Positions 1,318-49,700 of a stretch of DNA of 64,000 bases are shown here, piece after piece. The position numbers were made by a program, and so were the translations under genes. Under the pieces are notes generated by a model that did no database searches, was not told the origin of the DNA, and saw nothing but the letters and a program-made list of their open reading frames with translations. Origin of the DNA: Seison nebaliae (Eukaryota); assembly GCA_023231475.1 (NCBI GenBank), contig JALJEE010000562.1, positions 1-64,000 on the forward strand, read 5' to 3'. Positions within the stretch are counted from its first letter, which is position 1, and each line of letters starts with the position of its first letter.

Positions 1318-3612
1318 TCACTAAACGAAAATTGAGAATTGCTCACAAAGACCAAGAAGAAATCAAAGAACTAACCGTCATACTTCGATTGGTGGTTTCA
1401 ATGGGAAGGAGAAATGACGCTACTGCGGCCAATAAACCAACACATCCGTATAAGGAGATAGCGAAATTAACTGATGTTCTGAGGAGAACCTATTGACAAA
1501 TGAATATTTTCAAAACAGAAATGTGAAAAAAAACTTGGGCTACGAATGGTGTTAAAATTGCTCCAACTCGAGCCATACCTGAGCAAACGCCTAATCCGAC
1601 AGCTCTTGTAGTTGTGGGATATACTTCTGGTGTGTAGACATATGCTACTTGGAAAGCACCGGAAACGAAGGCTCTAGCAACAAATATGAAGAATGTCATC
1701 AATTGTCTAAAAAGGGAAATGAAATGTCGATTTGAGAGGATTATGTGACGGAAATGAACCTTGATGTGCAGATATTGACTAGAAATGTGAATATGGAGAA
1801 CAAAAGAAGTTCCAATGCCATTGTCTTTTTTCGTCCGATATATTCGACAATGAAAACGGTAATGAATAGACCCGGAAATTCCGCTAATGTCGTCCACAGA
1901 ACATCAATATAATCTTGTTTCGTTAAACATTTCAAGTAACATTGTTCACTTTTCTCCGAAATTTTCGCTATTTTAAATCTTAGAAGAAATTTAGATGAAT
2001 TGAATGGAAGAAACCTTCACAAGTTGAACGCATTTCAAATAATTCAGTTGTCATTAATATGATTCCATAATAAGCGAATGCATTAGCGAACCACAAGAAC
2101 CATAAGAGCAATGTTGTTCTTCGATTTTCCGGTTGTAACAGATCGGAAATTTGTCCGCGTTGTTGGTTATGTCTTGGAGCAATTAACTGACCTACTGGTA
2201 ATGTGGCTTTGTTTTCATTAGCCGCCCGTTGCAATGTAGCTTGTGCTTTATCTTGCGCTCCAATGGCTAATAGGAATCGGGGCGATTCTGGTAACCAAAC
2301 GCAAAATAAGGCAAATAACAATTCAGGTAAAGCGGAGAGACCGAGAAGCCATCTCCAACCTAATGTTGGCATAACAGCTAATGCGAGAAGTACTTCGAAA
2401 CATGCTCCGATTGCCCAAAATACTTCGACGAGTATGACGCATCTAGCACGATGTCTCGCAGGAAGAAATTCAGCATATAATGTAACAGATTGGGGACAGC
2501 CTCCAATGCCAACACCCACTAATCCTCTTAAGATTAATACCCAGATTAATGTTGGAGCGAAAGCACTCAACAGACCGTAATAGAATGTGAAGAGAGTAAA
2601 TAGAACTAATTCCTGATATGATGAAGCATTAACGATCGAAATTTTTAAAAGAAGAAAATTTTAAACTGTGCGACGTCCATACTTGTCACATATCTTCCCC
2701 CAAAATGATGAGCTGATCATCATTCCACAAAATACACACTATTAAATTGAAGAAGTATTATTGGGAGAAAGAGAGAATGTGAATCAAACTGTAGTAATTG
2801 CTGCTTTCTGCCAATCGCCAGTCATCCATTCGCAACTGAGAGCAGGTCCTAAAATACTCAGAATCATCATTTCCATCGCATCCGCCATCTGATATTAAGA
2901 AAAGAGTTATCTCATATGAGTTGTTGTCAGTTGGAAATAGTAACCCATGCTAAACCAGTTAACAAAGAGAGTTTGACTTGAAACATTCCAAATCCAATAT
3001 GATCAACAGCTTGATCCACCGTATAACGTGCTGGCTCCGCCCGAGCAGATGTATTGTCTAAAAATTTCAAATTTTTTAATTTCAAATTCAATAATAGTAA
3101 TTCCAATTGGAAGGATTATAGATAAAATTATTTATGTGATTTCTACACTTTCGTCCTCATAATCAGTTGAAAATAATAGAAATTATTTTTTTCTAATAAA
3201 AATTGACCTGAAATAATTGTTGAGTTTCAGTGAATTAAGTAGAAACGAATGAATGAATGAATGAATGAATGAACTGAAGAATGAGAAAAAAGAATAAATA
3301 AACGGTGGGGAAATGCCTAAATACCTGTTGAATCTGGGGGAGGATCGGATCCGACTCGATTTATTCTCCTTCTAACATCTATTCTATCCGATTGTTATAT
3401 TGTTCTATTTGATATGACTATTTGAAATAGATGAATGAACCTGGAGCTGGAACTGGGTCATTGTCGTTGTCCCCTGTATTTTGGAAAGATCTATACGGAA
3501 CGTCATCATCAGCATTGCCACTGTTATTATTGGTGTTGGCAGTCATGCTATCTTGGATACCGGTCATCAAATTGTTCATTTGCCGCCGAACATCCTTAAT
3601 GAGATTACTCAT
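1318..3612 (-). CDS. SVOP: Synaptic vesicle 2-related protein (SVOP-like MFS transporter), 9-10 exons
   Basis: Spliced translation gives [86 protein letters not shown] and LPIET. Introns: 3379-3440, 3058-3324, 2889-2944, 2739-2789, 2613-2666, 1968-2014, 1707-1759, 1490-1534 and probably 1321-1375. If the last intron is not spliced, the stop is at 1343-1345. Confidence 0.93.
3247..3272. repeat. (GAAT)n microsatellite in an SVOP intron
   Basis: Direct tandem GAAT units. Confidence 0.85.
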
Positions 3613-5047
3613 TTTTAATGTTGCCGGCTAGCTGTACTCGCTCACCACCACTTGAAGACGATCAAATAAAAAGAATAATCTGATGAATGAAAGACGATGA
3701 AAACGAAAAAATGTTAGTTTGATATTCAATTTCGTTAAGAAATTCGTTTTAATTCATTTCAATTCTCTCATTTTGGGGAGAACCGTCGACAAATATTTTC
3801 ATTTTTTTTCTTTAATTAATTCTCTCGCCTCCTATTCTCTCATGTAATTCCCAATCATCAAATTGTTCCATGTTCCAATGGAAGAAACGAATGAATAGAT
3901 GGCAGACAATCTGAATTGATTTCAACGATTTCTAACAATAGAAATTCATCGGAACAAATTTTCATTTGGAAAGATGATTAGTTGAATTTTGCATGAGAAC
4001 AAATTTTAAATAAATTCAATATAATATCGATTTTATGTTTAAGTAATCTTGTGCTAGTCCGAACAGTCCGAAGTGACGAAGGATGTCTCTTTGAATCTCC
4101 AACTCTTTTACGGTGACTTGTTTCTTCAACCGATTCTCCAAAAAAAGCATAATCGGATGATGAGAGTGTGGATGTATATGACCAGGAATGAAATGTTGCT
4201 CATGATCCTCCCAAGTGGAGATAAAATTAAGGAAATAAGTGTAAGAAAGGAGGAATATAAATTTCTCGAGATATAGAAATCTATTCGTTTAATAATTTCA
4301 ATATAGTCTAGTAAAGCAATGACTCTTTGGGTCGCCCTCTTGTTCCGTGCGACATAAATTGAAATATATATTCCTCTTCAACCAAATGTATAACATGAAT
4401 ATACATTTATTTTTTTTAAAGAATATTTCGTTCCCTACAAATTTATATGTGACGATTGTTCATCATTAAATCTATGACAACTACAAGACATGAACTAAAA
4501 ATATCTTTAAAAATATTTTATAGTTTCTCTTCCAATACGTCGAGTAAATTCCCTTTTATTCTTTATAGGAAACAACATTTTCTATTTTAGGAGATATATT
4601 ATTCTATGTACGTAATTCTATGTATATCTGCTGTAGTCGAATGAATGAAATGTCTATGTGTCCCCACCGATATGTGTGGTACCCCCAATATAGTTATTCT
4701 CTTAAATAGCAGTAGGATGTGTAGAACAATTTTCTTTCTCCATTCACACACACTATTCACTTATCGTGTATTATATTCTTTCGTTTCGTCATCTTTACCA
4801 CTCCATGACGTAAAGAGATAGAGAATATTGAAGAATTTGCATGAAAATATTTGAAGAAGAAAAGAATTGACAATAGAAACATAAAAAGAAACGGAAAATT
4901 TATCATTTTAATTTCACTCTTTTCCAAAAAAAGAACCTCTGAAAGTTCTCCCTTGAAAAAATTGGAAGAAAAAACTCGGAAATTTATTCACTGATTGTAC
5001 TAATCAATTCGCACTCTACTCCCAATAACCACTACTTTCATATCGTT

Positions 5048-7199
5048 TTAAATTATCAGCTTTCGTCGATCTTCCTCCGATTTTTGCCGTTTCAATTCTA
5101 CTGACTCATTGACTTTCTGGATGATTTTCTGTTTATCTATTTTCCCGTTTCCAATCATTCTGGGCAATTCCTTCCAACATTCCATTACTGACGGTTGCAT
5201 GTATGATGGTAGTTGTTTAGCTAAGAACCTCTTAATTTTCAGTTTCACATAATTCGAATCTTCATTTTCTTCAGTTATGCTAAAAATTAAATGAAGTGAC
5301 TTATATCGATTATCGAATTTTGATTTAATCGGAACAACACAACATTCGTGAACATATTTAATTTTCTTTGTAGTCGTTTCTATTTCAGACAATTCAACAC
5401 GAAATCCATTCAATTTAATTTGTTCATCTTTTCTTCCATAAAATTCCCATAATCCATTCTCTAATTGACACACGTCACCAGTATCATAAGACCACAAGTT
5501 ACATAAGCCTTTCTTTAGCCACTCATTTTTTGTTTGGATGTTGTTGAAGAAATTTTTTGAATTCTTCACATATCCATTCGACACACAATGTCCACTAATT
5601 ATCAAAGTTTTTTCGTCAATTTCTCCATTTTTCAGAGTTAATAAATTTCCTGGTGCTCCAATTCCAATTGGCATATTCTTGTCATTTGGTAATTTCGATG
5701 GATGTTTGTAATTATACAACGTTCCTAATGATGTCGTTTCACATGGACCATAACCATTGATAATTTCTGCAGATGATGAATTCTCCAAAAATCTGTTACA
5801 AATCGATAGAACTGGTCGTTCGCCACCAATAAAAACCTGAGAAGAAACATGAGACGAAAGAGAATTAGAAAGAAATTATTTTTAAATAAAAATTCGATGA
5901 ATAATATTTTTAATTTACAATTTGTTAGTTCATAATTATAGAAGTTATTTGGGAGAATGATAAAATAGAGAAATTGAAAACTTTCTCTTTTTTTCGAAGA
6001 ATGGTGAGAAAGAAATGATGGGAGAGATGATGGAAAGAATTTGAGAAGAAAATAAAACTTTTGTTAATGTTGAGAGGTAGGGAAGGAAAGACTCAACAAG
6101 AATATTGAACATTCCTACGATACAAATGAGAACAGTAATTTCATATCGATTAATTCGTTCAGCGATATGTTGAGGTTGCAAAAGATGACGACTAGAATGA
6201 GAAGAAGAAAAGAATGAGATTAATTCGACCATATAAATGAAAGAGTGGAAGGGAAGTTGGCTTAATAAGAATATTAACGAACCGGTTGATAATTATGAGT
6301 TTAGCTCCATTGAGTAATGCACCGAACAATTGATAAGTGTATGCGTCGAATGAGAGTGCAGTGATTTGTAAAATATTGTCATTCTCTTTCAAATTAATAC
6401 AATTTTCAGATAAATTTCTCAGGATCAATCCTCGATGATGTAAGAGAATACTTTTAGGCTTACCAGTACTTCCCGAAGTGGACAATATTAGACAAGTTTC
6501 CAAAGATGACAAATTTCTTGTTAAGTTCAACAATTTCGTTCTTTCCTCTTCCAATTCGAATTCATCACCATCATCATGGTCATCGTTCTGGGGGAATAAT
6601 TGATTAAGTGGAAATATTCCAATTTCATAAGATAATCGCGCGAGCAATTTCTCTAGATATCTCTTTCGATTATTATTCTCGTCACAAACAATCGTCAAAT
6701 GGAAATGTTCATTGAAGTTTCCATAAATATTCTCGATAATCCATCTATTCCTATCAACCGGCAGACGATCATCAATATAATAAAATAAATGATTATTACA
6801 CATAACAGACAATAAGAAAACGAATGTTTCGATTGATCGCTCCCCACAGAACAAGAAGATTTTCCGTTTTCCCTCATTTTCATCATGTTCGATTTGTAGT
6901 TTGTTCATTCGATGAATACAATGTAAGATTTCGTGCTCCAATCCATCAAAAGTAAGTTGATTAATGATATGTCCCTCATTCCTCAATCTCTCCACATTCC
7001 AATCCTCAACGAGAAATAAACGATCGCGAAATTTGGGAATGATACGTCGAAAAATGAATTGGGCGAGATGGAACGACACTGATCGATGATCATTCCCTAT
7101 CTGATGTTCGAGTGGTTGATAGTGTAAATCTAATTTCCTCAGTTCTTCATAAACATCATTCCCATCAAACATTTTCTTCGATTTCTTCTCCTTCTTCAT
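5048..7199 (-). CDS. Stand-alone NRPS-type amino acid adenylation enzyme (ANL superfamily), about 612 aa, 3 exons
   Basis: Core motifs in order: STSGSTGKPK (A3), LSFDAY (A4), FIGGE, NGYGPCETT (A5), YDTGD (A7), GRKDEQIKLNGFRVELSEIE (A8), LPSYMQP (A9), NGKIDK (A10). Introns 6192-6282 and 5837-6058 restore one frame (917+133+789 nt). No carrier or condensation domain seen. Confidence 0.9.
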
Positions 7200-7524
7200 T
7201 ACATCTCCTAATGTCTCGGTAAGTGTTTGAGAATTATTTCATCTGTTCAACAACATTCAAATTCAATTTTCATTTACTATTTCAACAAACTAATTTTTCA
7301 ATTAAGGAAACATTTATAAAACTTAAAATCTTCTTTCTCATACTCACAAGACAACTAAATAACTAAACTTAAAAAAAATAAGAATTTTAGCTAGTTCTCT
7401 TTTTTTTCTGTTGATTTTTCCATGGAATTTATTCGATAAAAATAAAAAGTGAAAATTTTTTTTTTCCCCACTCCAAAAAAATCAAATCCCCACGGCGCAG
7501 ATTAAGAAAGATATTTGAATTGAT

Positions 7525-9097
7525 CTAGTTCTTTGTTATTCGATAAGCGTGAAGAAGATTTATATCAATAATAAAATTTGAAGTATTTTCCCACAGTCGT
7601 TTCTTATATTCACTTCCATCTGTCGATTCCAATTCGTAGAAGGTTGATAAATTATAGATCAATTGAGAACAGAGATACATTCTCGGATCGTCTTTGATTG
7701 CATTCTCCAGTAAATGAATACCATCTGCCAATCGATGCATATACAACAGAGTTGTCGCTTTATTTGTTAAGGACTATAGGAAATGATTTGAAATGGAAAT
7801 GGATGAATCAAAGAGAATAAACTTCAATTTTCAGTTTATCTGAAATCGTTTCACTTTCTAGAACTTTTTCGAAGTTGTCAAGAGCTTCCGAATAATTTTG
7901 TCGAACGAATTCGAGACAACCTCTAAATGAATTTCAATGAATCGAATCGAAAACATGAGATAAACATGTTAAAATTGTATAAGTCTGGAAATTGAGTTTT
8001 GTCGATTTCCTCAAAAATTTTCTGCGCTTCATTTGGAAGATTCATGGATAGAAGGAATCTTCCTAAAATTAATGTGACTGATTCGATTGAATATATTTCC
8101 ATTTTTTTAACTTCAATTATTAAATTGATCGCATCTTCGATCATCTGAAAAAGAAAGTTATTGTTAAAGTTAAAACGATAATAAATAAACTTCTTTCTCC
8201 ATATAAATATTCGCCAACAACAAACAAGTTCTCGCTTTCCGTTTCTTCCAACATTCTTTCTTAGACATGAATGAAATTAGAGAGAAAAAAATTGAAACCT
8301 TTCACAGATAAAAGTTCATTAAATTTCTTTTCGTTTTCACTCTCAATTTCAGTCTTCGATTGAGTGATGGATTCAATTGATCTTTCAATAACATTCAATA
8401 ATTTTGAACAGATATCGATCAATCGATAAAATTTCGTGATACTTCTCGCCATTTTACCTTTGTAAGAATTGGAGGAACGATATGCCGCTTCAATAGATAT
8501 CAATCGGAGATCATAAGGAATCATACAACCATTTGAATTGAGATATTGTTCTCCATAATGTCGATAATAGAAGAATGGACATTGGAATTCACCAAAACTT
8601 CTCAATTCCTGATCGATTTCATGATACATTCTCCTCTTCATCATTATCGATACGCGAATCAACCAAATTTGAAAGGAATAAGCAGTGAAAATGGGCGCCT
8701 CATATACTTCATGAGATGATTCCGTTGAGTCATGATGATGTGCGGATAAGATGGCGGTAGTCAGATTGAATGCTTTCCTCAACGCTCCACATTTTATTAA
8801 ATTTTGTAATTCGACTGTCGACATTTCTTTCTTGTCGTTTGAAGGCAAATGATTTATTCGATTTCGTTCATCAATTTCCATATCAATCGATTGATTTAAA
8901 TCATATCTCTTCCCATTAATCGTCAAATCATCAGTTAATTCCTTCTTGATGAGAATGGGACGAACAGAGGAAAATATCGATCTTCTCTTCTTTCCATTGC
9001 GGGTGGATGAATATCGATTTATTTCCAATTTATTTCCCGAATTTAAATAATCATTCAACTCTTTCGAAATACACCAACTGTCTTTACTGATTTCCAT
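7525..9097 (-). CDS. TRAPPC12: Trafficking protein particle complex subunit 12 (TTC15), TPR protein, 5 exons
   Basis: LQNLIKCGALRKAFNLT...SFQIWLIRVSIMMK...ELRSFGEFQCPFFYYRHY...GCMIPYDLRL and C-terminal YNLSTFYELES resemble TRAPPC12. Introns at about 8256-8298, 8145-8190, 7923-7965 and 7774-7822. Start codon uncertain. Confidence 0.82.
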
Positions 9098-9297
9098 TCG
9101 CTTCGTCAGTAAAATATCAGATGGTTATTAATTGGATGACAATTAATAAATGAGAATTGATCGAAAAATAATTTTTTTTAAAATTTTGAACAAAAACTTA
9201 AAGTTTGAAAATGTTCGAATTTCAATTTCTTTTTTATAATTTCAAACATTTTTCGTTGGAATTAAATTGGCGATCTATCGTAATTTTTCGGAATTCC

Positions 9298-9310
9298 GTT
9301 GTTAGGAAAC
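9298..9310. promoter_or_regulatory. RFX X-box-like motif in the divergent TRAPPC12/TCHP promoter
   Basis: GTTGTTAGGAAAC (reverse complement GTTTCCTAACAAC), about 150 bp upstream of the trichoplein ATG. Confidence 0.55.
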
Positions 9311-9463
9311 GGAGAAGAATGGAATAATTGTTCTTTAAAGAAATTAAAATAAATTTTTTCCAATTCCGTTCTTTCTCATCTGTGCATTTTCGTACAGTTG
9401 AATTATCAAGGGGGAAAAAACTTAAAGTTGTTGTTGGAATTCAATCTTTAACTTTCGTTAAAG

Positions 9464-11135
9464 ATGGCGTTTCCCACACTACCATCCTACCGAGAATTGT
9501 GTCATATACATTCATCTCATCAAGCACTTGCCAGAAAGCAAGATGTTTTAATAAGGAAAAAGTTTTTATTTCTGTATGAAATTCGTTTGAAATTTTAATG
9601 ATTGTTCAGAGAAGAATTGAAAGAGAATGCGAAATTCTTTCGAAAATCTAATAATATTTCCAGATTAAACGAACGATGGACATCTGATAATATATTTAAT
9701 TCGAGGTAATTTTTTCATTGACGATTATTGTTCATGATGATGTTAAAGTATTAATTCATATAATCGACAGTTTGTTGACGATAAAAAGAAAGAAAAGATT
9801 GAGGAAAGAAGATTAAAATTAACTGAATTGTACAGTGAAGAAATGAAGGAATATGAGGTTAACTTGAACAATGTTTATAATTGTGTAGAATATTTATTTG
9901 TTGTATTTGTTGTGTAGGCACAATTACTTACTGTTCCCGATGAATTACGTCCTCATCGATTGAAACATCGTGTGGAACAGATGAAGAGAATAAAAGAAGA
10001 AAAACGACAAATGGATGTGGAAGAGCGATTAGAACGAGCTAAACGAGAAGTTGATGCTGAATATCGTGCTAGACAACAATCAGATGAAAGGAAACGTTTG
10101 GTGAAAGAATGGAATGAACAATGTCGTTCCAGAGAACAAAATGAACAGAAGGAGAAAACAGTTGAAATGAATGAAGAGAAAAAATTGTTAGAAAAAGATC
10201 GAAAGTTGAAAGAAGAAGAAGATCGACAAAAGAAAGAAAAACATTTAAGAAAAAATGAAGAATTGAAGAGACAATTGGAAGACGAACGTTTTCGACAACG
10301 TGAAAGAGAAGAACGGAAAGTAATGTTTTTGAAAGAAGAAGCTAAACTGAGAGAAGAATCGAGACAATTAGAAGTACTGGAATCCCAACAGAAATTTGAG
10401 GAACAGCGTCGGAAACAAAGTGAATATGCTTCTCAATTGAAACGACATCATTTAGCACGACTGAGACGGAACGCTTTAGAAGTGGAAAGACAATTAGAAT
10501 CTGATTTGAGTTTCCTTCAACAATTATCCGATATGGAATTGAGAGAGAATGAACGATTGAGAGAGAAGAAGAAAAACGAACGTCAATTGTTAGTTCATGC
10601 GAGAGAAGTGCTCATTGCACAACGACATGAAGAGAAATTACGTTTAGCTGAAATTGATGCAATGCATCAACATGAGGCGGAAAAGGAATGGGAAAAACGG
10701 GAAGCAATATGGAATAAAGAACGTGAAGCACGTGAGAGATTATTGCAGAATGTTCTAATGGAAAGACAAGAACAAATTAACAATAAATTGAAATTGATAA
10801 ATGAGAATATCGGTCAATCATCATCATCATCATTAAATAATGAAGATCAGCAATTCGAAATGAATCAACAACAACAACAGCAACAACAACAATATTATTA
10901 TAATAATAATAATAAAATGAATAATAAGTATTATCATCAAAATAATAATATGAATAATAATAATAATAATAATTTGTCATTAGAGAAACGTGATTCATTT
11001 CATTCATATAGAAGTGATGCAGAAACAGAATCCTCATTCAAAAGTGCACGGCAGAATAAACATTTAGATATAAGCAATTTCTCATCAACATTGACTACTC
11101 CACGATATGGACGACGGAAAGTAGTTTGGGATTAA
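9464..11135 (+). CDS. TCHP: Trichoplein keratin filament-binding protein (TPH coiled-coil), 4 exons
   Basis: N-terminus MAFPTLPSY matches the trichoplein MALPTLPSY signature. Long E/R/K coiled-coil with EAEKEWEKREAIWNKEREARERLL. C-terminus PRYGRRKVVWD. Introns 9562-9609, 9706-9748 and 9858-9917. Poly-Q/N insert near the C-terminus. Confidence 0.88.
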
Positions 11136-11622
11136 CGTTGGATCAAAAGCTCCAATTCAAATGATAATCTCTCAATAGATTCTTTTTCAAATAACTTTTA
11201 TTTTTGATGTTTCATAAATTCTGTTTCACTCTTACTATTTTCATTACTTATAAATTTCTAATCAGATATTTCTTTCTTTAACCTTATAAAAACCTTATAC
11301 ACATTTCATTCTCTTTTATCGGAAAAGTTATCATTCGTCGTCTTTTCTTGATGATTCGTTCATGTATCTTCTTTCAAAAACATTCGTACATGTCGGCTGA
11401 TGTGATGTCTGATGGAATGATAATTTGTCAACGATAATATCGTCATTCCTTATCATAATTCCGTTATCTTATCTTCAATTTTCATAGAAATGTTGAATGA
11501 TTTGTTGGAACAGAAATCGAATAAAACAAAAACAACAACAGTAGCATCTTGAGTGAAAAATCGATTTTATACTGAGAAATTATAGGGAATTACAATAAAG
11601 ATAGATACTGATTTTATTCTCA

Positions 11623-12537
11623 ATGAAATTTCAATATTATCAATTAAAATTTTATTTATTCTATTCATTTATTTATTTGAATGAATTGATTGTGGGAAGG
11701 GGCACAAATCGAATTATTGGTGGTTCGATTGCCCGACCGAATTTACCATATTCGATTGTCATCTATCGAATATATCATTCACAAGGACTACCATCAATTA
11801 CAACGCCGATATGTTCCGGTAATTTAATTTCAACCCGATTGATACTTACCGCTCTCCATTGCGTCCTGTTGAAGGAGGAAGTGATAAATTTGGATGATTT
11901 GTTTGTGGTTGGCGGACAGCAAATTATGAATCGATTTCAATCGAATCAAATACAAATTCGATATATTCATCGAATAATTCCACATCCTCTCAAAAGTTTT
12001 CATTTTTTTCTCATTTCTATTCAAAAAAAAACAATTTCATCAGAGAAAAATAATTTAGATTATGATTTAGCCATTCTAGTAACAAAAAAGGAATTTCAAT
12101 TAAATCCTTTCGTCGATATCATTCAATTGTCGAGCATCAATGAATCACCAACAAATATTGAATGTTTCACTTCTGGATTTGGCGTATTCAATACTCATTT
12201 CTACTATCGTTATTCATCAATCATTCAACAGTTACAAGTGGAAATTGTCGACTATATTCATTGTAAGAATGAAATGAGATTAACAACATCCACCAATTTC
12301 TGTACGAGAACAACCACAAATAATATTGGGGAATGTAACGGAGATTCAGGAGGTGGTATCATTTGCAGGAAATTAAATGGCTATTCGACAAACTCCCAAC
12401 ACAAACTAGATAATTTTCAATTATATGGAATTGATTCTTGGCAATTAAGTTGTTTGAAAAATAAAACATTTACTGTTTATCAAAGTGTAGCAGCTAATCG
12501 ACTTTGGATTGATGGAATGATAGGAAATTTCAATTAA
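11623..12537 (+). CDS. Secreted S1 (chymotrypsin-fold) serine protease
   Basis: Hydrophobic leader, activation site R|IIGG, catalytic TALHC, DLAIL and GDSGG. Probable in-frame 48-nt intron at 11996-12043. Confidence 0.88.
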   Translation: MKFQYYQLKFYLFYSFIYLNELIVGRGTNRIIGGSIARPNLPYSIVIYRIYHSQGLPSITTPICSGNLISTRLILTALHCVLLKEEVINLDDLFVVGGQQIMNRFQSNQIQIRYIHRIIPHPLKSFHFFLISIQKKTISSEKNNLDYDLAILVTKKEFQLNPFVDIIQLSSINESPTNIECFTSGFGVFNTHFYYRYSSIIQQLQVEIVDYIHCKNEMRLTTSTNFCTRTTTNNIGECNGDSGGGIICRKLNGYSTNSQHKLDNFQLYGIDSWQLSCLKNKTFTVYQSVAANRLWIDGMIGNFN

Positions 12538-13707
12538 TTTCATTTCCAGTTATTACAGAAGGATAAATAATAACACTTATAACATTCGAATACGAATTCA
12601 ATCGAAGTAATTAGTCATTTTTTTGGTTATTCCATTCATCTTCTTCTAATAAACATAAATAAAAAAAACTTTGAAATTTACAAATATTCTTTTCATCCTC
12701 GTCCTTTTTAAAATTTTTTATTGAATTTTAATGAAAACTGGATATGGCTAACAAAATAACAAATTTTTTTAGCGAAAAATAAATAAGGTGAAAAGTAATG
12801 AATTGAAGATAATTGGAAATGTTAAAGAAGAAATCAGTTATAATGTAGAATTCCATCGTCCTCCATCTTTAAATTTTCGTCCAATTTATGAGAGTTTTAA
12901 ACTTTCATCAAACATTCGAAAATCGTAATTCGAAAATATGAACAACATTGGTAGAGTTGGGAGGAATTTTAAGTGTTATTAGTGAATGTGGTTGAAGTGG
13001 AAAGAAAGAAAGCAGGAAAGAACAAATGTGTCCAGAAGAAAGTTAACGACACAATTGAAATAAGATCAAGAATAGAAAGAACGAGTAAATTTTGTTATCA
13101 ACACAATAAGAAAAGTTTAGAAATGTATAAGAATGTTTGGAGAATCATCCGCACATCCAATAGTTTGTCAAAGAATAATCATAGTGAAGAATTGTAAGAA
13201 AAGAAAAGAAGTTTTTTCATATTCGTAGCAAATTTTTTTTTCAATAATTTAGTAAAAGTAGAGTCGCCAGAAGTAGACTTTTTCCAGCATTTTTAAGGAA
13301 TATTAATTGTTATTAATAAATTAAATGAAGTTTAGAGAAATAGAAAGATTTAAATGAAAAGTAAATAAATAATATGATTGTAATAAGAATTAAACTCTTC
13401 CAAAAAGCTTCCAATCAGATGAAAAGGACTAAACTTTTATAGCAGTAAGGAATGTGTTTGGTGATAAATAATTTTCTAAGTATGAGCCTTTCCTTCTCGG
13501 CCTTGAGAAATTAGGTGTTGAGTAATGTTATCGTAATATAACATCGGGAAATATTAAATTGTATTCTTTCTTCATAGTCATTCATTATTCTGTCATTTCT
13601 TTATTAATTTAATATAAGAAAAGCAATACTCAAATTTCCTTATATTGCTAAATAAATAGAACACTATTCTACCATCGTTCTTTAAGAGACTTCATTAAAA
13701 TTTCAAT

Positions 13708-15065
13708 ATGGGTGATCGAACACACCTAACTCGTATGAGCACTATGGCTATGACTGCAAAGGTTTCCTTTTGAACTAGAACTCCTACTAAACTTTTCTCC
13801 ATCTGGAAAGGAAGGGCAAGGTTTCCTCCAGAAGGAATGGGGAAACCGAAAAACGAATATGGTCGGTAGGAATATCGAGGAACGATTGGATGACGTAGCA
13901 AGACAAGCCGAAGAGAAACGTCTATTAGCAGAGAAGAAAGTTTAAGATTTATAATCAAGCATTATCAATTTTAAACAAAAATTCATCATCATTTTGGTAT
14001 GTAAATTGTCAATAGAGAAAAGAGAAATCGAAAAGCGAAAAGAAATTGAAAGCGGTTTTACAACGCAAGAAAACCGAATTACAATTGATGAAAGTTTGTG
14101 TAAAAATTCTCTTTAATTAATTAAATTAAATTTATTAAATATTTCTTTAATTCTTATAATTATTTACAATGTTTTAATAATTCAATTTAAACAATGAATA
14201 AAAAAATAGGAAAAAAAACTGTCTGTTAGTGGAGTGAAATTATTAAAAAGGAAATTACTCCCGCAAACTTCAAGTGTTGGAAATATTGCGCTTAAACGAT
14301 TACAAAGTGCAAGAAAACTAGTGAAAGAAAAGTCAACAGTTAATCGACCCTCATCAAAAGGAAAAAAGAAGACGAAAGGAAAGAAGACAACTACTTTGAG
14401 AAGTAAACCTAAATTACCAAAACATAGCACGATGTTGGCTACAGCAGCAGTTAGTTGAATTAATGTGAATTTATTTCATTCAAAAAACACTTTAAGGAAG
14501 CACAATTGTTGATCAGTGAATTGGATAGTGATGCTAGGACCAGATCACAAGCACGAAAGATCGCCAATCTAAAGAAAATGGAAGAGAAGAAACAAAAGAG
14601 AAAAGCTCGACCGAAACGATTGCAGGAAAGTAAACGATTATCTAATCGTAAGAAATTTCCCGTACAAAGCAGTGATTATTCATCGGAAGAAGACGTTAAG
14701 CCGAAGAAGCGTGGAAGAAAGGCACAAAGACCATCCGAAACAGAAAGCTATGAGGAATCAAGCGAATCTCATTCAGATACGAAATATAAATCAACTAAAA
14801 CACGTCGATCATCGAAGAAGACGTCAAGTTCTCGCAAAGTTAAAATTACAAAATCGATGAACAAATTGAAGGATCGAAAATCGAAGTCGACTGGTAAAAA
14901 AATACGAGTTACTTCTTTTGTTTTCGATTGATCTTCTGAAGAATATTCATATTCTGTCCCCAATAGAATGTTTCGGAAGGGAAAGCTTTAGGAACGTCTC
15001 GATCTACTGGATCAGCTGGTCTCCGTCGATCAAAGCGAAGTGGACACAAATATTTTGGAGTATAA
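13708..15065 (+). CDS. Lys/Arg/Ser-rich basic protein, about 336 aa, 6 exons, no recognised domain
   Basis: Five phase-0 GTT..AG introns (13762-13810, 13940-14015, 14094-14209, 14450-14496, 14908-14966) join a stop-free frame from MGDRTHLTRM to GHKYFGV*. Confidence 0.75.
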
Positions 15066-15483
15066 AATAATATACGAACATTACAAACAAATATACGTTT
15101 AATAATAAATGCATAAACGTTTCATCATTCTCAAACTAGATAAGTAGAAGTCCCAAAATCTTTCTTTTCCGATTTCTACTGAATACTGCCACATTTTTCC
15201 TTTGAATGATCTTGCGGATTTTGGGATTAATTTCTTTTTGAAAACAACAAATTTTTCAAATCATCCTCTTCATTTTTTAATATCATGATGTACATGATCC
15301 AGTTTATTTTGTATTTACAGTTATCTGTCCTGATTTTGTAAGTGATTAGTGATGTTCCTTTCCAATATAAATAATAAATTTATTTTATTTGTGTTAATAA
15401 ATATTTTGTTTAATAAACTTTTTTATTGTTCATTAAATTATTTTTCTTTTTTTTTCTTATGTTGCTATGTATTCTTACGCTAA

Positions 15484-15594: not shown

Positions 15595-16972
15595 ATGACA
15601 AGATTCTCATCGTCAATTTCGAATGCGTTCGTTTTTGGTGAAGCCATACAAAGACTCGATTTAATTGGCGACATCAATCGAATAGCTAATAATGAACAGA
15701 GAAATAATGATGTTCCATTTCTTCTTTCAATATTTTCTTCTTATCATTTTCCATTGAAAAGAAAATTATTGTAAATGATGTTAATCAATCCATATCGTTA
15801 AACGAAACAAGATTAGACGAGTTTGAACAAGAAACGACTCGTCGTTATAAGTCGAGTGGGAAAAGTAGGAAAACAGATAACAGCGGAAAAGATTTCACGC
15901 AATTAATTAATGAACTGAAGAAGAGCGCAACCGACGTGAGAAGATCATTATTTGAGAATCCAACAAATGATGGAAATTTCCAGAAGATTGATGATGAACG
16001 ATTAAAATTGATGGAAATGTTATTGGATACCATGAAGAACTTAATAGTTAAACAAAATATTGATAATCTCAAAGAGAAATTGGAAGAAAGTTCTCGAGAT
16101 AAACAAGAATATCTTGCAGCAATTGAACAGTTTTCATTTGAACATCTTTAATGGATATATTGATTGATATGTTTCAGATCAAAATCTCGAAAGACAACCA
16201 TATTAGAATTGACGAACGAAATAAATGAATGTCGATTATCGTTGGAACGAGAAATAGCTGAAAGGAATGATTTAATCGCTCATTTGAAGGACCAGGTACA
16301 AGTTGGTAGAATGAAATGAATATATTATTCATAATATTCATCCAAATTTTCCAGGAACTAAAATGTAAATCTGATATGGAATATAAATACGTGAAAAACA
16401 CTTGTGATAATTCCATCCAACAAACACAACGTCAATGTCAAATGAGTGAAAGACAATTGGAAACGGAAATTAGCGATCTGAAAGCTGATATCGAAAAAGA
16501 GGAGAAAGTTCATGTAGAAGTTAAAAGTTTCTTGGAAACTTTAGTTAGAAGAACAGGAGATGATGCCGAAAATTGGAATCGTCGTTACGACCAAGATATT
16601 TTAGACAAACAACAGGAGATTGATATGAGGAAAACAATAAGGGCAAAAAATTTGGAGGATTATCGACAAATGAAAGATAAAGTTTAAGATAATTTTATTT
16701 GGAATATTCTCCAACTTTTCCCATACGACAGTTCGGAGAATGTACAACAGTAGTAGACAAATATAGGAGTGAGAAAGATAAGGAAAGACGTCAAAGAGAA
16801 GAAGAGGAACAACGTCTTCATGCTGCAATTAAAGTTCGTTTCCGATTTATATTTTATTATTATTTGTTTAAAGTTACAATCATGGTGGCGAGGTATGATG
16901 GTGCGCTGTGCTTTGGGTGCATTTAGTAAGAAGAAAAAGAAAAAGAAAGGAAAGAAAAGCAAAAAGAAATAA
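15595..16972 (+). CDS. IQCG: IQ motif-containing G / dynein regulatory complex subunit 9, 6 exons
   Basis: Coiled-coil with HLKDQVQELK, EEKVHVEVKSFL and WNRRYDQD, IQ motif AAIK|LQSWWRGMMVR, Lys-rich tail. Introns 15712-15761, 16130-16177, 16302-16354, 16682-16731 and 16834-16873. Start uncertain. Confidence 0.82.
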
Positions 16973-39789: not shown

Positions 39790-40893
39790 ATGGTGAATTT
39801 ACATCTATCTGCTTTTCTTAAGGTATTACGCAGTTGCAGTAGACATGATACGGATGCTGGAACTCCGACATCTACTCCCAATAAACGAAAATCACATTCG
39901 ACTGAAACGTTGAAACATCATCGCTCTAAGCGACCGGCGGATAAGACGAAACAGAAATCAGGTGAATCATTCCGTCATTGTATTGGTAAGAAATCTGGTG
40001 CAACTGATAAAGATGGGAAATCGTACCAAGCTGAAGATTTATCATCGTTATCGTCAATATCATCGTCGACGACGAGGACGAGTGGTGGTGGACAAAAGAG
40101 TCGAGAGAATAATTGGTCTGAAGGTGAGAAGAAGAAGCATTTGTCAATGGAGAAACATTTGGGAGAATCGTCTCCTGAATCGTCATCACCTTCATTTCCT
40201 AAACTGTCATCATCATCACATAAAGCTCCCGCACAAGGTAAAGAGAAATGTCAATTTTCATCCGGTTCAACTTCACGTTCTTCAACATCATCTTCACCTT
40301 CCTCAGCATCAGCCACGTCATCACCCGCCCCATCCTCTTCATCCGCATTATTATCCTCAACAAATAATTCCAAAAAGAGAATTGGACAGAATATGAAAAG
40401 CGAACAATTTATTGATAAGAATATAAATATTAACAACAACACGAACAAGAAATATAATAATAACTCTCAGAAATATATGCAAAAATATTCTCAGATGCAA
40501 CAATCAACTGAAAATTATCGTCGTCATGTAAAGAAAACGATCGAACAAGTCGTTCCTTCCAAAAAATCTTATTATCAACCTGACGAATCGACGAAACAGG
40601 AACAACAACAACCCAATCAATTTGGACGTGTTACTGGTCCAGCCGATTTCGATCCATCAAATTATAATGGACCATCTCATCATTATTTTCCTCAGCAACA
40701 GAGTTCGATTACGAGTGAAGATTTAATATCAGATTATCGAGAAACGATAGATGGACAAGTTCCATTTATTAAATCGGGAATGTCATCCGTATCACCATCA
40801 TCAATAAAAGAACGTCCATCATCCTCTTCAACGAATCATTCATCAAATAAAGTCTATTATCAACAAGAACAACAAGAACAGCAAAAACACCAG

Positions 40894-40935
<42 letters not shown>

Positions 40936-41875
40936 CGAACGACGTATAATGAGAAAACACAAAAACATTATAATCATCGAAATTATCATGGATCGACTCA
41001 CGAAAAATATTTGTATAAAGACAACGAAAAAAAGAATTGTCGATTGGATGAAGAGAATTATCAGAGACAATATCATTCGTCTTCCTTCGCTTATGATGAA
41101 CATCGAAATGAAGAATTCAACAAATATTCTTCATCTAATTACCGGGAGAATGATCAATTTACACCCAACTCATATGATGAACGAAGTCCCATCAATGAAC
41201 CGAATAATCAGACTAATATAAATAAACAATTCTATCCGAGAGATTCGACACAAAATAAAAATTATTTGACGGATGAAAGCATTTCCTCATCATTGACGAG
41301 TGAATTGAAAGCATTGAACATTCAGAAAGCATTACCATTATATGAATTATCTCCATCATTAACAGCACTCACAATGAGTGGTACAGTGAATGAGTTGAGG
41401 AATGCAGCTGAAATGAACGCAACAATCAATCCCGATACCGGCTCCATTCACATTGATGAGAGTACATTAGTCTTAGCAAACGGTGTCGCTCAAGCCTTCG
41501 CACTCGAACTTCAACAACTTCATTATATCGATAGTAGTAGTCAAAGTTCGATGAGTATGGCATCATCGCGAACATCACGTCGTACATCATCACAATTCTT
41601 CAATACTTATCATCATCGTAATCGATCCTCCTCCAATTCATCTGGTGATACGTTGAAAGCGAATGAATTCGCAACAAAACAAACGACGAATTTCAAGAAG
41701 AATTATGGAGATGTTATTCAACAGAAAATTCATTTTTCTTCATCTCCTATAGATGACGAAGAATATTCTCAAGAAAATTTCAAAAAACATAAACAAATTC
41801 ATCTCCAACAACAGCAGCAACAACAACAACAATATAGGAAATGTGATGAATTTTCCAAACATAATTATCAACAAG

Positions 41876-41918
<43 letters not shown>

Positions 41919-44900
41919 TGATAATCAATTAAGACTTGAACAATCAATGTCGTCAGGAACGATATCGGGAAATGTGTCGAGTAATCGAGATCAAATTTAT
42001 CATCGTCGAGATCAACCACCGGAAAAAGATGTAAAATCATCAAAAAATGATCTGTTCGATATTACATCGGAAGTTCTCAGTAATCTCTTATATTCCAATG
42101 ATACAATGAATGATTTGCCAAGAGAGACAGATCGAAAAATTCCATCAAACGTCTCACCATCAACCGGTGAATGGGTTAAACGTCATCGAAATCTTTTCCA
42201 TCAAACACCAGTAGCTACGTCTTTAATGAATGATCTGTTATCGCCCATTAGTCGACGTTGTTTCCGTCCAGCAGAATTGCAGCAATTCGACAACGAAATC
42301 ACAAGAAATTTACGAGATATGAATAAATTAAAATTCTTTCTAAAATCTTCTCATCGTCAAGAAATTGCCCCAGATCGTTTACCTAAAGTAGACTCGTATC
42401 ATCCCAAACCAATGATTTTCATGAGTGCAACTGACGAATCATCAGACGATCAAATCACGAGACATAATCCGAGATGTCAATCCGTTACAAATGTTCCATG
42501 TGAACCGATTCTTGATGAGAATGGTAAATTGGCATCAATTCCACTTCTGGAACAATTTACCGAAACTTCAGCCGCTTTCACTCGTTACATAATAGAGAAA
42601 GCATCAGAAGAATATTCGAAATCCGATCGACAACATACGAACGATCCAAATAGTCAGTTCAATACGATGGGCAGTTTTATTCGAAGTATTCTCCTTTCCG
42701 CTTGTTCTCGTCTTCTGGTGGAGAAGTCGATTAACACCAACTGCATTCATAAGAGACACAAAAATTTGGTTAATGAACTTTGTCGATTATTAGATACGGA
42801 AATGTTTAATCTCCGTCAATTACACAATCAGCCGCCGAAGAAAATCTCTCCAAATTTGAATCGACACAAAATCGATAAAACTTATAAAGGAGATGGTGGA
42901 AATGTGCAGAAAATCGATTCTCATTCTGAGAGGATAATAAGACATTCAAAACAGAAATCATCACCACTTCCATCATCCTCCTCATCTACATCATCATCTT
43001 CGTCAATACCAGATCTGTCGACAGGAATCGTAAGAGATATTCAAAAAAAGAAATCGAATTCGAACAAACGATCGATATCTCCCGACGCCTCCATCATTTC
43101 AACGGAATCATGTCTCTCTTCCTTTACATCTGATACGATTACTACTAATACAGGTTCTTATTTCATTTCTCATTTTATTTTTTAAATAATTATTAAATAA
43201 ATTAATATCATTATCTCTCCTGTAAACAGAAACGAATGATTATGGTCAATCGATAAAACAATCGAATCGTAATCGAATAGTGAAAGAAGCTCCACGAAAG
43301 AAGATGACGAAACATTTGTCAGCGAATAGTGCTCGAACGAAATTATTCAATGAATTATCGTCGAAAGGAATGAATGATTTGGATTTCCAATTGAAAAATA
43401 CACGAATTACACCGTGTGCTCCATTCCAATATTCGAGTTTGGAATCAGATAATCCAAATTCAATTTATTATCATTACGGACGATATAAACGACAAACGGA
43501 GATGATGAAAATTGATGATATTCCATTTGGGGATCAATATCAACAAGACGAGTCGTCAGGTCGAACGGTATTGGTAGACGACGGATTCATTCAGATGACT
43601 TCACCAAATCTCGTCATTCCATTTATCCGTTTCGTTTGTCATTATAATGATCCCACTCGATTGCCACATGCTTGTGAAGATAATAGTGAATTGACAACAT
43701 ATTCCTTCAACACATTCTCTTCCGTCAACCAGCCCACATTTCTCTTACGATTACATGGAAATGAGTGTAATGATTCGTTGGCAATGCAGTTCAATTCGAT
43801 CGATCCAGCGCCAAAAGTCGCTTGGAAACAATTGAAGAATGAATTGTCAATAAGACATGAAGCATTAACGAATCTGCAAGGGGAAATGTTAGTGGAACGA
43901 TCAATAAGAAAATTAGCCGATCCATCATCGTTCAATGTTCCGATTATCGATCGATTGAATACGAAAAATCGACCGTTACATCTCGACAAGGATAGTCGTC
44001 TCAATGAACAACGTGCCATTTATCAGAAATTTACAAAGAATTATCAAAAAAAAGAATTGAATTTATCCATTCAATCATCACATCTATTCCTCCAACATCA
44101 ATGCCCAATTCTCCAACCAACATTTCCCACATTGAACGACACGGATGATGAGATGGAACTCGATTCGTCACCATCGAATACGGTAGCGTATTGTCAATTC
44201 TATTATGAAGCGTGTAGTCGTCGAAAGAGATTGTTACGAGAGAATCGAAAGAAGTTTCTTGATAAATTTTATTCGATTCTCCAATCCGTCGAAGATAACA
44301 CTGATAAGGATCGTTCGATAAGTCCAACTTCAACCGATTCTCTCAAAATAGATTATGGGAAATATTCGGATACCTCATCCGATTTACATCATCGCGAAAA
44401 GATTAAATATTTTTTGAATGATATCGATTTGCATGATATGATTCGAATGAATACGAATGAATTGGAAAGAAATAAAAAGAATTTCAATATTGATAGTGAT
44501 CTAGAAAATGATGTAGTTGATGGAAATGATTTGTTGCAATCGAACGATGGTAGTATTATTGATAAGTTAGAACGAAGTGGAAATCAGAATAAAAGTGAGA
44601 GAATGATTGGACAGAAATGTATTTCTCTTCCTCCACCTCCTCTTAAATCGGCTCTCCGGCCATCATTCCCGTCATCAAGTAACAAAGACTCATCGTCAAT
44701 GGGACGATCGGATGGATCCGATACAAAATCTGACAATGATCTGCAAGATCTCTTACATGACGTTCCGTTGAAGAATATGGAGCAATTTCGATATGGTAAG
44801 AATGATCAATTATCATCATCAATATCTCCCGTACTTCAAACAACTAGTAGTATCTTATCAGCTAATATTCCTTTATCATCCACATCATCACCATCTTTAT

Positions 44901-45763
44901 CGATAACATCTTCACCTTCACTACCATCATCATCTTCATCATCATCATCTTGTTCACAAACAATGCCATTATCTATATCGACCACTACACCGTTGTCAAC
45001 AGTTGCTACAACGATGAGTAATATTATATATGATAATCGAACAGATGAGTCATCCGATTCTATCATGTCAAGTGAAACGAAAAAATTGGGAGGAACATGT
45101 CCTTCCACCAAAGTCTCATTCGCTGTACATACACATCGATATTTATATAACAGTGATTCGCCACCAGCCACACTTCTCGTTCATCATGAGAGACACGACG
45201 AGAGTATTGATGATGCTGATGATGGTGATGATGATGATGGTGATGAGAATAAGAAGAAGAAGAATGTTGAATGTCAACGAGATAATTTGAAGAAGGAGAA
45301 TCAGAATAAAGATGCTCCATCGTCCAAAGGAGAGAATCAATTAACTTATTTCGATGAAGATAATCCAATTGATCAACAAGAAGATTTCTCTTTCGATAAA
45401 ACGGATTTAACATCTTTGGAATGTGAGGAAACATTAGAGAGAGAATTCGAAATGACGACCGAATCAGATTCCGAGCAACAAATCGAATCGTTCGCAATAT
45501 CGAATAATTCGAATGTTTTGAAAACCGTCTGGCCACCAAATCAATCCACCATTCTCACATCATCATCCACATCCTCCTCAACGATCATATCTCAAAGCAA
45601 TATTCGTGAGAGGACGATGGAAACTGGAAATTATCCGGAAAGTTCTGGACAAATCATTTCAACGGACAATCGAGAAATCGAAGAACAAATACCATCATCT
45701 CGTTCGTCGAATGGAAATGAAACGAAAACTGAAATCGAATGGACTGATGCCATCGATGTCTGA
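39790..45763 (+). CDS. Large low-complexity protein, about 1965 aa, 2 exons, with poly-S and poly-Q tracts
   Basis: The 1131-aa and 827-aa ORFs are joined in frame by a phase-1 intron 43154-43229 (G|GTTCTT...AACAG|AA). No domain recognised. Confidence 0.82.
40896..40936 (+). repeat. Coding (CAA)n poly-Gln tract
   Basis: Pure CAA run. A second run lies at about 41878-41916. Confidence 0.9.
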
Positions 45764-46732: not shown

Positions 46733-49700
46733 ATGCAATTCTTTCCTCCTCAAAAAGAAAATAATATTGGTAGTAGTGGGGAGAATGTGCGACATAGTAT
46801 GTTCCGACCCGAATTTATCGATCGTTTACAAAATGAGATAATTTTGGAAGATGCTGTCGAACGAAGAGATCAAGTAGACGAAGCACGACCTGTCATCTCA
46901 ACTTCTCGATGTTTCAAGATCGTCTATTATACAATCCTTCCTTTATGTCTCATCTTGTGTACGGCCGTGCCAATTGTCATTTATCAAGTTCGTCAGAATA
47001 ATTTAGGGAATTATCCATCCACCAAAAACAATGACATTGATACGTTCGTTGAGAAAGGATATTATACTAAAATCAATCATAAGCCAGTGACATATATCGA
47101 ATATGTAACTAGACCACGTTTCTTAAGTAAATTCCGTAATATGGTACCGAGAAATTATGAATTTTATCATTTGGAAAATAATTTCAACAATTCCATTTCT
47201 CCATGTGACAATTTCTACATTCATACTTGCGGTAATTGGCAACACAACAATCGATTGAGATCAGTCCAAAAACAGAAATATGTTGATGAAATAACAATAT
47301 TGAATTTGCATATGAATTCAGAATTGAAGAAAGAGTTGAGTAAACTTTTCAGTTCAGCGAAATCTTTTAACGATTCTGGTGCACAGATCCTTTATAATAT
47401 CTTTTATTCTTGTTTACATGAAGCGGAAGATGTCGGTCAATTAAAACGATTGATATTTGATCGTGAGAAGAAAGATATTCGATTTGCCACAAAATTTTAT
47501 GATCGACCTATTAATGAGAAAATAGATGAAAATCTTCAACAATTTCATTTGAACGTCACTGACAAGAACGAGAATGATATGATGTCTGAAGAGATCGACA
47601 TAAATTATGTTATGGGAAAATTGATTAAGAATCGTCATCAAATTTTCTTCCGTTTACGCTCGTTCTCATTACCTCACAATCTCTCCATTTTCTACATTTC
47701 TCATCGACAACTACAACGAATTCAACGAATGTCTTTATTGAACAAGAATCTTTTCGGAGATAATAATCAATATAAAAAATTTATGAGAATTCTTCTCATT
47801 TATTCGTTCGAGAAGATCTTCCAACAATCCTACTCTCACCAAATGATTCATCGAATCATTGACGATATTATTGAGATTGATCATTTCTATGTGAACTGGT
47901 TGACGATTTCGGAAAATTATCGAAATATTTCTCATAATCAACGGTTCGATTTGTTATTGAAGTGAACAGTAAAAATTATTTTTCTTAGAACTGAGAATTT
48001 TCGAAGAAATATCATGAAACGATTAGTGAAACAAGAGAAGAACGATGAATCAAGATTATCATATTTAATGATGAATGTTAGTTGAATTGAATTAAGAAAT
48101 AAGAAATTATCGAAATTGTCTAGTTAAATGTAGAAGAGAATTTCAATTCTGTTCAATTCTCACCAGTTGCTGATTTACCCAAAAACGAATTGTTCGATTG
48201 GGAAGAAATATTGAAAAATTTATTTCCGACAAAAAACATTTCCGAATTGATTGTTCCAATTTTTATTTGAATATCAGACAATTTAATTTAAACGCAGACG
48301 ATTAAAGAGAATTTCGATGAAATGAAACTTCTAATGAATGAAATGAAAAGACATTTCCATCGGTATCAGATATTCAATTATTTACTCTATGTTCTCATCG
48401 AATCCCAAATCTCATTGTTCTCCGATAAATGGCGTAAAAGATTGATGTTTGTAGCACCGAAAGCTTATCGGAAATATGGTGAATCGATTTTCATGTCAAG
48501 AGAAGAGTATTCTTTCTAATTTCAGCAATTCGGTTAATTTAGTCTTTTAAACTAGGTTCTGCTACGTTTACATACGACAACGAACACCTGAACTGATAAT
48601 CAATTTTTATATTTCGAGAATTTCACAATCAACTAAATATTATGAACAATTCCGATTATTTATCGAAATTTTTCATCAAATTAAAAAGTCAGCTATTGTA
48701 TGGGTAGATGGTCTTCCATTGTCGTACGAGACAAAATCGATCCGTTTTACTTTCAATCTTCTTCATCATTTCGTCGAATTCTTAATGATATCAATATCAT
48801 CATACGAATTTAGTTGGCGACCGATTACAAACTGTCACATTACAACTCGGTTTTCCTAATCATCTCATGAAATTCACAAACAAAATTCATGTGGATGATG
48901 AGACTGTTGTCAGGAATTTCGGGAAGTTCATGTTTATTAAACGGAAATTTCCATTTTACAGTTATCATTTGTTATTGACGATGAATTTCATATTATTCTA
49001 TGTTTTTATCAAGAATTTATCGAGAGTATCAATGAAATAAATTTAAAAAATTTATGGAACCGATCTCCAATTGATTGGCATATTGACTCTTATACGGATG
49101 ATCCGTTCTTGGTAGAAGCAGCTTATTTTCCGGTGGATCATCGGCTCAGAGTTTTTTATATTTATCCATCCATTTACATCCATTTTATGATTTTTTTCCT
49201 GCAGTTATATGGTGGTCTTATCATTTCATTAATGCCAATGAGTCAGAAAATTGACAGGATCTATTTACTTGGATTTGTTATTAATACGATTGCTCATGAA
49301 ATCAGGTTTAAACAATTTTGAACAATTTCTCATGGAAATTAAACGTTTAGCCATTCGATCGATTTGTCGAAAGGTTCTTCATTTCGCATGTCCATTGCCA
49401 ATTCTTCCGACTTACAAAAATATGATGAATATGTCGATTGTATTGGAAGTTAAAATTTGTAGAAAGAAATTGAATAAAATTGACTTAAATAAAAACAGAA
49501 TTATATAACAAGAAAGAAGGAAAGGAACGAATGGTAATTGAACAGGAAGATATCGCCGATGTGTTCGCCGTTCGATTAAGCAGCATATTAATTAAACGAA
49601 TAATTGATGAGTTTCTTCTTATCTCCTCCTTCAACAACATGTCAACGATCCATATTTCCATTAGAAAAATTCATGGGGACAGTTATGTTAATGAATATTC

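Follow-up and report, generated by a model that had tools for sequence, protein, structure and literature searches.

A purine at the third intron position (+3) is among the most stable features of animal introns. Here we describe a 64,000-nucleotide (nt) stretch of the genome of Seison nebaliae, a tiny marine rotifer (assembly GCA_023231475.1, contig JALJEE010000562.1; the whole stretch is called the window below), in which 40 predicted introns, carried by nine genes on both strands, almost all begin with GTT. An SVOP exon in the window matches S. nebaliae SNEBB_006316 at 99%, and one exon each matches SNEBB_006318 and SNEBB_006324 at 100%. The nine genes are listed below with their donors (5' splice sites) and the basis on which each was modelled.

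1318..3612, minus strand: SVOP gene SNEBB_006316, nine introns (exact spliced map of P0001, non-Seison profile); donors 3440 GTTCAT, 3324 GTATTT (267 nt), 2944 GTTACT, 2789 GTTTGA, 2666 GTTTAA, 2014 GTTTCT, 1759 GTTCAT, 1534 GTTTTT and 1375 GTTAGT
5048..7199, minus strand: AMP-binding (nonribosomal peptide synthetase adenylation-like) gene, two introns (Pfam AMP-binding, open 612-amino-acid frame once spliced); donors 6282 GTTCGT (91 nt) and 6058 GTTTTA (222 nt)
7525..9097, minus strand: TPR protein gene SNEBB_006318, four introns (exact spliced map of P0121, Pfam TPR); donors 8298, 8190, 7965 and 7822, all GTT
9464..11135, plus strand: trichohyalin-plectin-homology gene, three introns (PDB 8snb_4F, E=3.8e-08; open frame once spliced; our own reconstruction); donors 9562 GTTTTT, 9706 GTAATT and 9858 GTTAAC
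11623..12537, plus strand: trypsin-like gene, one intron, 11996-12043, GTTTTC (Pfam Trypsin, +3-blind finder)
13735..15065, plus strand: lysine-rich gene with no family assigned, five introns (open 327-amino-acid frame once spliced; three of the five also picked by the +3-blind finder); donors 13762, 13940, 14094, 14450 and 14908, all GTT
15595..16972, plus strand: IQ-motif protein gene, five introns (exact spliced map of P0122, profile built from 30 homologues outside Seison); donors 15712, 16130, 16302, 16682 and 16834, all GTT
39790..45763, plus strand: long low-complexity gene, one intron, 43154-43229, GTTCTT (+3-blind finder, open 1965-amino-acid frame)
46733..49944, plus strand: M13 peptidase-like gene SNEBB_006324, ten introns in range (exact spliced map of P0179, Pfam Peptidase_M13_N); donors 47944, 48077, 48253, 48507 (GTATTC), 48744, 48961, 49151, 49306, 49449 and 49611

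We take the TPR protein to be TRAPPC12-like, the trichohyalin-plectin-homology protein to be trichoplein-like and the IQ-motif protein to be IQCG-like. Twenty-seven of the 40 introns were read off by mapping four database proteins exactly, with splicing, onto the DNA (P0001, P0121, P0122 and P0179, with 8, 4, 5 and 11 introns respectively and one solution each). Twelve more, in five further genes, were obtained by hand reconstruction together with an ab initio gene finder that is blind to +3, some of them guided by coordinates from a preliminary description of this DNA. The fortieth, the ninth SVOP intron (1375-1321, minus strand), lies directly before the stop codon, so that the last coding exon is just TGA and P0001 ends ...NRSMT. 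It was added late, and most statistics below other than donor totals were run on the first 39. An eleventh P0179 intron (49838-49889, GTC) falls outside the range and was left out of the count; it is questionable, since reading continues in frame across it to at least 49944.

Among the 40 donors, 37 are GTT and three GTA (3324, 9706 and 48507), with no GTG and no GTC. All 40 introns have the GT...AG ends of U2-type introns, but the wider AG/GTRAGT consensus (the slash marks the junction, R a purine) is not followed: +3 is a purine in 3/40 donors, +5 is G in 9/40, and none reads GTRAG, either as GTAAG or as GTGAG. The bias is well above chance, both against the T content of intron bodies (0.44, p=1e-10) and in its avoidance of GTC (0 of 37 pyrimidine donors, p=8e-6); T follows in 41% of all 5,481 GT dinucleotides in the window. 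Intron length is narrow, at 40-62 nt in 33/40, and density is high, about 2.2 per kb (the nine genes have 17.9 kb of coding sequence and, before the fortieth was added, 39 introns). Contigs from four public DNA runs cover most of positions 1000-20900, cross the introns uninterrupted and show no other letters, so the pattern is not an assembly error. It is a real property of the introns predicted in this DNA. The preliminary description had reported the same totals of GTT and GTA donors, the same absence of GTAAG and GTGAG, and the same counts for length, +5 G and −1 G, and every donor coordinate that it quoted is correct; our recount departs from it only at −1, where A occurs in 21 donors rather than 20. 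It had also held that a genome-wide +3 T frequency no higher than intronic T content would speak against an altered donor, and in the window the excess is plain.

Beyond +3 the signal is loose on the intron side and purine-rich on the exon side. Positions +4 to +8 are near background composition: +4 is T in 22 donors, A in 9, C in 8 and G in 1 (T 22/39 vs 44% background, p=0.08), +6 is never G (0/40), and the hexamer GTTTGT occurs in 1/39 donors. Upstream of the junction, −1 is A in 21 and G in 14 (purine in 35/40), −2 is A in 25 and T in 1, and −3 is A in 21. The introns are G-poor (8% G), and in 17 of 32 short introns a single GT lies in the window 40-62 nt before the acceptor. Requiring GTT raises this number to 24 and purine/GTT to 26, which argues that the splice signal consists of purine/GTT together with size and composition. 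No branch-point motif with a fixed position was found in the introns (YTRAY in 13/39, vs 15 expected from shuffles); TTCAT is enriched, again with no fixed position, but this word was picked after looking and is part of the general T/C-rich composition. The acceptors have no clear pyrimidine tract, and −3 is T in 19, C in 13 and A in 7 of 39, so that AAG acceptors are common.

The pattern depends on the junctions being placed correctly. For 13 coding introns in the SVOP and IQ-protein genes, we scored all in-frame GT/GC-AG alternatives within 60 nt against profiles of non-Seison homologues (45 for SVOP, 30 for the IQ protein). The modelled junction ranked first in 12/13, of which 11 are GTT (11 of the 12 GTT introns tested), including all five junctions of the IQ protein. 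For five junctions no GTR site within 60 nt is in frame; the others, where they lie in conserved regions, lose 5-48 bits when moved. At 16302, for example, aa/GTTGGT is predicted to be used over ag/GTACAA, in frame six bases upstream at 16296: the latter looks more like a U1 target yet scores 12 bits lower (275.1 vs 287.5). The one junction that did not rank first is that of SVOP intron 1, which lies in the unconserved N-terminus and ties with a GTA site (817.2 vs 816.8 bits). All eight SVOP coding junctions were also recovered by a spliced aligner that does not score +3, using a profile in which Seison residues enter only in columns having fewer than three other rows. Donor 6058 of the AMP-binding gene is not pinned in this way, since 6118 GTAGGA and 6097 GTTGAG likewise yield open frames, and the introns of the lysine-rich and low-complexity genes were placed from open frames and the +3-blind finder. 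The +3-blind ab initio finder placed 5/28 introns exactly in leave-one-gene-out trials, too few to count as a test.

Donors of other eukaryotes provide the natural comparison. A metagenome scan gave 80 SVOP loci. Twelve of these, the best of the mRNA-like ones, were set aside as coding controls, and L014 was not used; the other 67 were aligned, and 46 yielded well-flanked introns. The 46 loci hold 122 introns, 85 of them distinct by position and context, and 82 distinct GT donors, which are not independent events because many of the loci are closely related. GTT occurs in 10/82 control donors (vs 37/40 in Seison, Fisher p=1e-18), and all ten also carry +5G and +6T, whereas +5G is present in 9/37 Seison GTT donors (p=2e-5). 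GTT donors as such are therefore not rare, a small correction to the statement in the preliminary description that +3 in animals is overwhelmingly a purine; the novelty in Seison is that GTT is near-universal and does without +5G and +6T.

Shared intron positions sharpen the contrast. One ancient SVOP intron follows residue 146; its control donors, 18 distinct ones, all start with GTA, against GTTTGA in Seison. Two further positions are common to Seison and the controls, and there control donors are GTT in 3/13 (position 170) and in 6/13 distinct donors (after residue 113); given the latter figure, the Seison GTT at position 113 may be inherited, which weighs against recoding at that site. In one animal clade (L034, L040, L041 and related loci) tgg/GTTTGT is kept at position 113 and the other introns are GTA or GTG. 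Nor does shortness in a T-rich setting bring GTT with it: of the 30 control introns no longer than 130 nt (T 0.41), 24 start with GTA. These short introns also differ on the exon side, with −1 A in 1/30 vs 20/37 short Seison introns and −2 T in 10/30 vs 1/37. The closest comparison is L018, in a clade sister to the Seison SVOP gene in a quick one-gene tree (SH-aLRT, a likelihood-ratio branch support, of 97) and likely representing other rotifers. L018 has GTA in 4/4 introns, including the shared position 170, and three of these are 68-69 nt long.

If purine/GTT is a working donor, exons should avoid it. We shuffled 6,489 Seison codons among synonyms (a shuffle that does not keep dinucleotides at codon junctions) and found purine/GTT on the sense strand 93 times vs 146 expected (z=−6.2). 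Pyrimidine/GTT is not depleted (164 vs 148), nor is GTRAG (17 vs 16.5). GTA overall is also below expectation in exons (154 vs 197), but the interaction between a preceding purine and the third base is negative for T (z=−4.9) and positive for A (+3.4); that is, purine/GTA is tolerated. On the antisense strand the purine/GTT effect is weak (z=−1.8; interaction −1.0). Among all 256 four-letter words, AGTT ranks sixth and GGTT eleventh in depletion, and the avoidance persists when the two low-complexity genes are left out, ten of ten genes going in the same direction, three of them barely. In the 12 SVOP mRNAs of other eukaryotes (one gene family, of higher GC) the interaction is reversed, at −3.5 for GTA and +0.6 for GTT. 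Seison exons thus avoid purine/GTT and tolerate purine/GTA, the mirror image of the controls, and it is likely that U at +3 is actively read.

The donor pattern, the contrast with other animals and the exonic avoidance are read directly from the DNA, whereas splicing at the modelled junctions and the identity of the molecule that reads +3 are inferred. A position that is 92% T with no C or G is not a free one. We propose that Seison introns start with purine/GTT instead of AG/GTRAGT and that +3 is read by an adenine, most likely created by a U-to-A change at nt 6 of the U1 small nuclear RNA (snRNA), and we give this proposal about an even chance of being correct. The opposing base would be A and not G, because G would favour C and GTC is absent from the 37 pyrimidine donors. 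Given the register in which U1 pairs with the 5' splice site, A at nt 6 is, among 33 one-letter variants of the U1 5' end, the one that best splits donors from decoys (area under the curve, AUC, 0.78 vs 0.62), though this is the +3U count in another form rather than an independent test. Placing the adenine at U1 nt 6, a call that we regard as evenly poised, follows the amoebae, where U1 changed with the donor while U6 ACAGA stayed fixed (in Entamoeba; 10.1101/2022.06.08.495308), as it also did in 240 fungi and outgroups (PMC10581693).

In this scheme U1 would pair as a short helix with +1 to +3 plus exon position −2, loop 1 of U5 would hold the purine-rich exon end (−3 to −1), +4 to +6 would be nearly free, and the narrow length of 40-62 nt with a G-poor intron body would give the remaining specificity by intron definition. 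The broader claim, that purine/GTT has replaced the usual 5' splice site throughout the genome of Seison, an intron-rich animal, through a changed core snRNA, whether at U1 nt 6 or even at the otherwise invariant U6 base opposite +3 (G44; PMC11732430), with +4 to +6 nearly abandoned, seems to us fairly probable. Further literature on which the analysis draws is PMC8351084, PMC10125929, PMC3033335, PMC11347168, PMC10245619 and PMC2397502.

A search for the U1 gene itself gave an ordinary-looking candidate. An Rfam scan of the window found no snRNA, and a U1 pattern tolerating A at nt 5-6 had no matches in viral contigs; its three matches in genome contigs each carry a standard 5' end. Three bacterial genome bins (L001, L002, L003/L084) hold eukaryotic U1 genes, that is, contaminant contigs, and L084 also has TTAGGG-like repeats at about 270-330. 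With the contaminant L003 as bait (an invertebrate U1, Rfam 151.7 bits, standard 5' end), each of four DNA runs, representing at most two samples, yielded one U1-like contig, which aligns to U1 nt −4 to 58 at 82% (11 differing letters, no gap) and continues into the loop II motif ATTGCAC; more divergent or filtered U1 copies would be missed by such an alignment. The contig may come from Seison or from its crustacean host. In runs X2 and X3 it is covered about as deeply as the window (15.2 and 17.9 vs ~15-18). Its depth is lower in X1 (5.4 vs 7-10), and the 30 letters upstream have 53% GC, which is high for this genome (0.7% of the non-coding 30-mers of the window get that far); the contig may for these reasons be the host's.

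Several points weigh against a change at U1 nt 6. This U1-like contig is ordinary enough to align at 82% to an invertebrate U1 with a standard 5' end, from which it differs at 11 positions. The predicted helix has only 3-5 pairs (+5G 9/40, −1G 14/40), so a one-letter change in U1 would not be the whole story, and the three GTA donors are also predicted to work. Finally, most lineages with changed donors, mostly at +4, kept a standard U1 (yeasts, Giardia, Trichomonas, Micromonas and Thecamonas; 10.1101/2022.06.08.495308; PMC10581693).

The alternative that survives best, though we think it unlikely, keeps a standard and weakly pairing U1 and has U at +3 selected at the hand-over to U5 and U6, through a changed U6 base or through proteins (U1C, LUC7, SNRNP27K, PRP8 or loss of METTL16). 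The ordinary-looking U1 in the DNA runs, the loss of most +5G and a U5-like exon side, visible in the −1 and −2 contrasts with short control introns, all fit it. So do yeast donor shifts, which follow METTL16 and SNRNP27K rather than snRNA changes (PMC10581693), and a C. elegans snrp-27 mutant that changes +3 choice (PMC11732430). The abundance of purines at the end of the exon hints at a larger role for U5 loop 1, and for this reason a U5/U6- or protein-led reading keeps its place. An unchanged U6 G opposite +3, however, would favour C, and GTC is found in 0/40; the published protein effects are at +4, where the T excess in Seison is weak; and U6 ACAGA is invariant in the 240 fungi and outgroups surveyed (PMC10581693).

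A standard U1 shifted by one base, with U10 reading −1 A or G, C9 reading +1 G and A7 reading +3 U, is improbable. Such registers are listed in PMC9311317, and this one predicts both the −1 purine and +3U, but it also predicts +4A +5A +6G, whereas +4A+5A occurs in 2/39 donors and +6G in none, and in separating donors from decoys it gains nothing over the usual register (AUC 0.63 vs 0.62). Less probable still is drift, in which +3 would be unconstrained in tiny, size-defined introns and move to T in a T-rich background. The near-background letters at +4 to +8 and the single GT available in half or so of the short introns (17/32) are what drift would leave; 92% T against 44%, with no C and no G, the exonic avoidance of purine/GTT and the GTA kept by equally short AT-rich introns at other loci are not. 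Mis-modelled junctions, with real donors at nearby GTA or GTG sites, are very hard to credit: they would draw on the near tie at SVOP intron 1, the open GTA alternative to 6058, the 5/28 of the ab initio finder and the fact that the introns are known from DNA and not from junction-spanning RNA reads (a point that also counts against the U1 change), but the homologue profiles, the +3-blind aligner and the exact agreement of database models at 27 introns all oppose them.

The preliminary description had offered two explanations. A changed reading of the donor is supported by the +3U excess, the ancient GTA positions and the exonic avoidance, and the snRNAs and associated factors that it named are candidates for the part that changed. 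Definition of introns mainly by size, with little U1 pairing, fits the weak +4 to +6 but cannot alone give 92% T, the lack of GTG and GTC or the exonic avoidance. If the U1 or U6 change is real, Seison would offer a natural experiment in which introns by the thousand were kept and changed in step with the spliceosome, and it would reveal which part of the spliceosome reads +3. Gene prediction trained on GTRAG would misplace donors in this group.

Some other features of the window deserve mention. The AMP-binding gene (5048-7199, minus strand) is a stand-alone adenylation gene with introns in an animal, and Pfam saw no carrier domain. The M13 peptidase-like protein is very divergent: its HEXXH counterpart, HEIS/H, is split by a junction, and a homologue search returned only itself. 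A palindromic X-box-like motif lies at 15484-15497, about 100 bases upstream of the IQ-protein start, with a second match at 28410-28423 (4 strand-matches vs 0.09 expected, the pattern having been fixed after the site was seen); it is presumably an RFX site (X-box), as expected for a ciliary gene. Depth is 3 to 8 times up at 17500-18100 in all four DNA runs, and a variant skips 42 bases at 18000-18043, as in a repeat element. Two long regions of this compact genome, 19000-32600 and 50000-64000, have no recognised gene; the open reading frame at 27546-28070 (minus strand) has no Pfam match.

Among animals, the minority GTT donors of our controls show that GTT can be spliced, even at positions 113 and 170 of SVOP, but they are few and all carry +5G and +6T. 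Roca and Krainer reportedly described, in 2009, atypical human 5' splice sites at which U1 pairs in a shifted register, rare sites with the consensus +4A +5A +6G. These share −1 A and +3 U with Seison but need +4A +5A +6G, which Seison lacks, and what is rare in humans is general in Seison. To our knowledge, as far as our literature search reaches, donor recoding with a matching U1 is in print only for amoebae. We found no printed report of GTT donors in Seison or any animal, in a search that covers few subscription journals and in which logos in figures are not searchable; the Seison genome paper does not mention snRNA in its text, uses ‘intron’ twice and ‘splic’ once, and has none of these in two supplementary files. 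The donor of Seison is a transformed one of a kind that this search did not show to have been reported from animals before, with a U1 change the likely mechanism.

Comparable changes are known outside animals. In Saccharomycotina, as in Seison, one donor base changed across a lineage, there from A to U at +4 in connection with loss of METTL16 and SNRNP27K (PMC10581693, PMC11732430), but +3 varied little and U1 and U6 are unchanged (PMC10581693), whereas in Seison it is +3 that has changed, with +4 close to background. Mastigamoeba balamuthi, an intron-richer protist, has the donor GUGCGC and a compensating U1 ACGUAC, its change falling at +4 and not at +3 (10.1101/2022.06.08.495308). The nearest parallel is Entamoeba, with donors GUUUGU(U) and a co-evolved U1 AACAAAC (Roy and Bowser, bioRxiv 10.1101/2022.06.08.495308), where, as in Seison and in contrast to the purine of most eukaryotes, U is near-universal at +3. 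Entamoeba, however, is intron-poor and strict in its hexamer (88-90% GUUUGU, 97-98% GUUUGN; 10.1101/2022.06.08.495308), while Seison is an animal dense in introns, with +5G in a minority of donors, +4 to +6 free, a purine-rich exon end and a U1 change that is predicted rather than observed. The Entamoeba case fits the idea that splice signals co-evolve only after most introns have been lost (10.1101/2022.06.08.495308); if our reading of Seison is right, an animal with about two introns per kb and a flipped +3 would test that idea directly.

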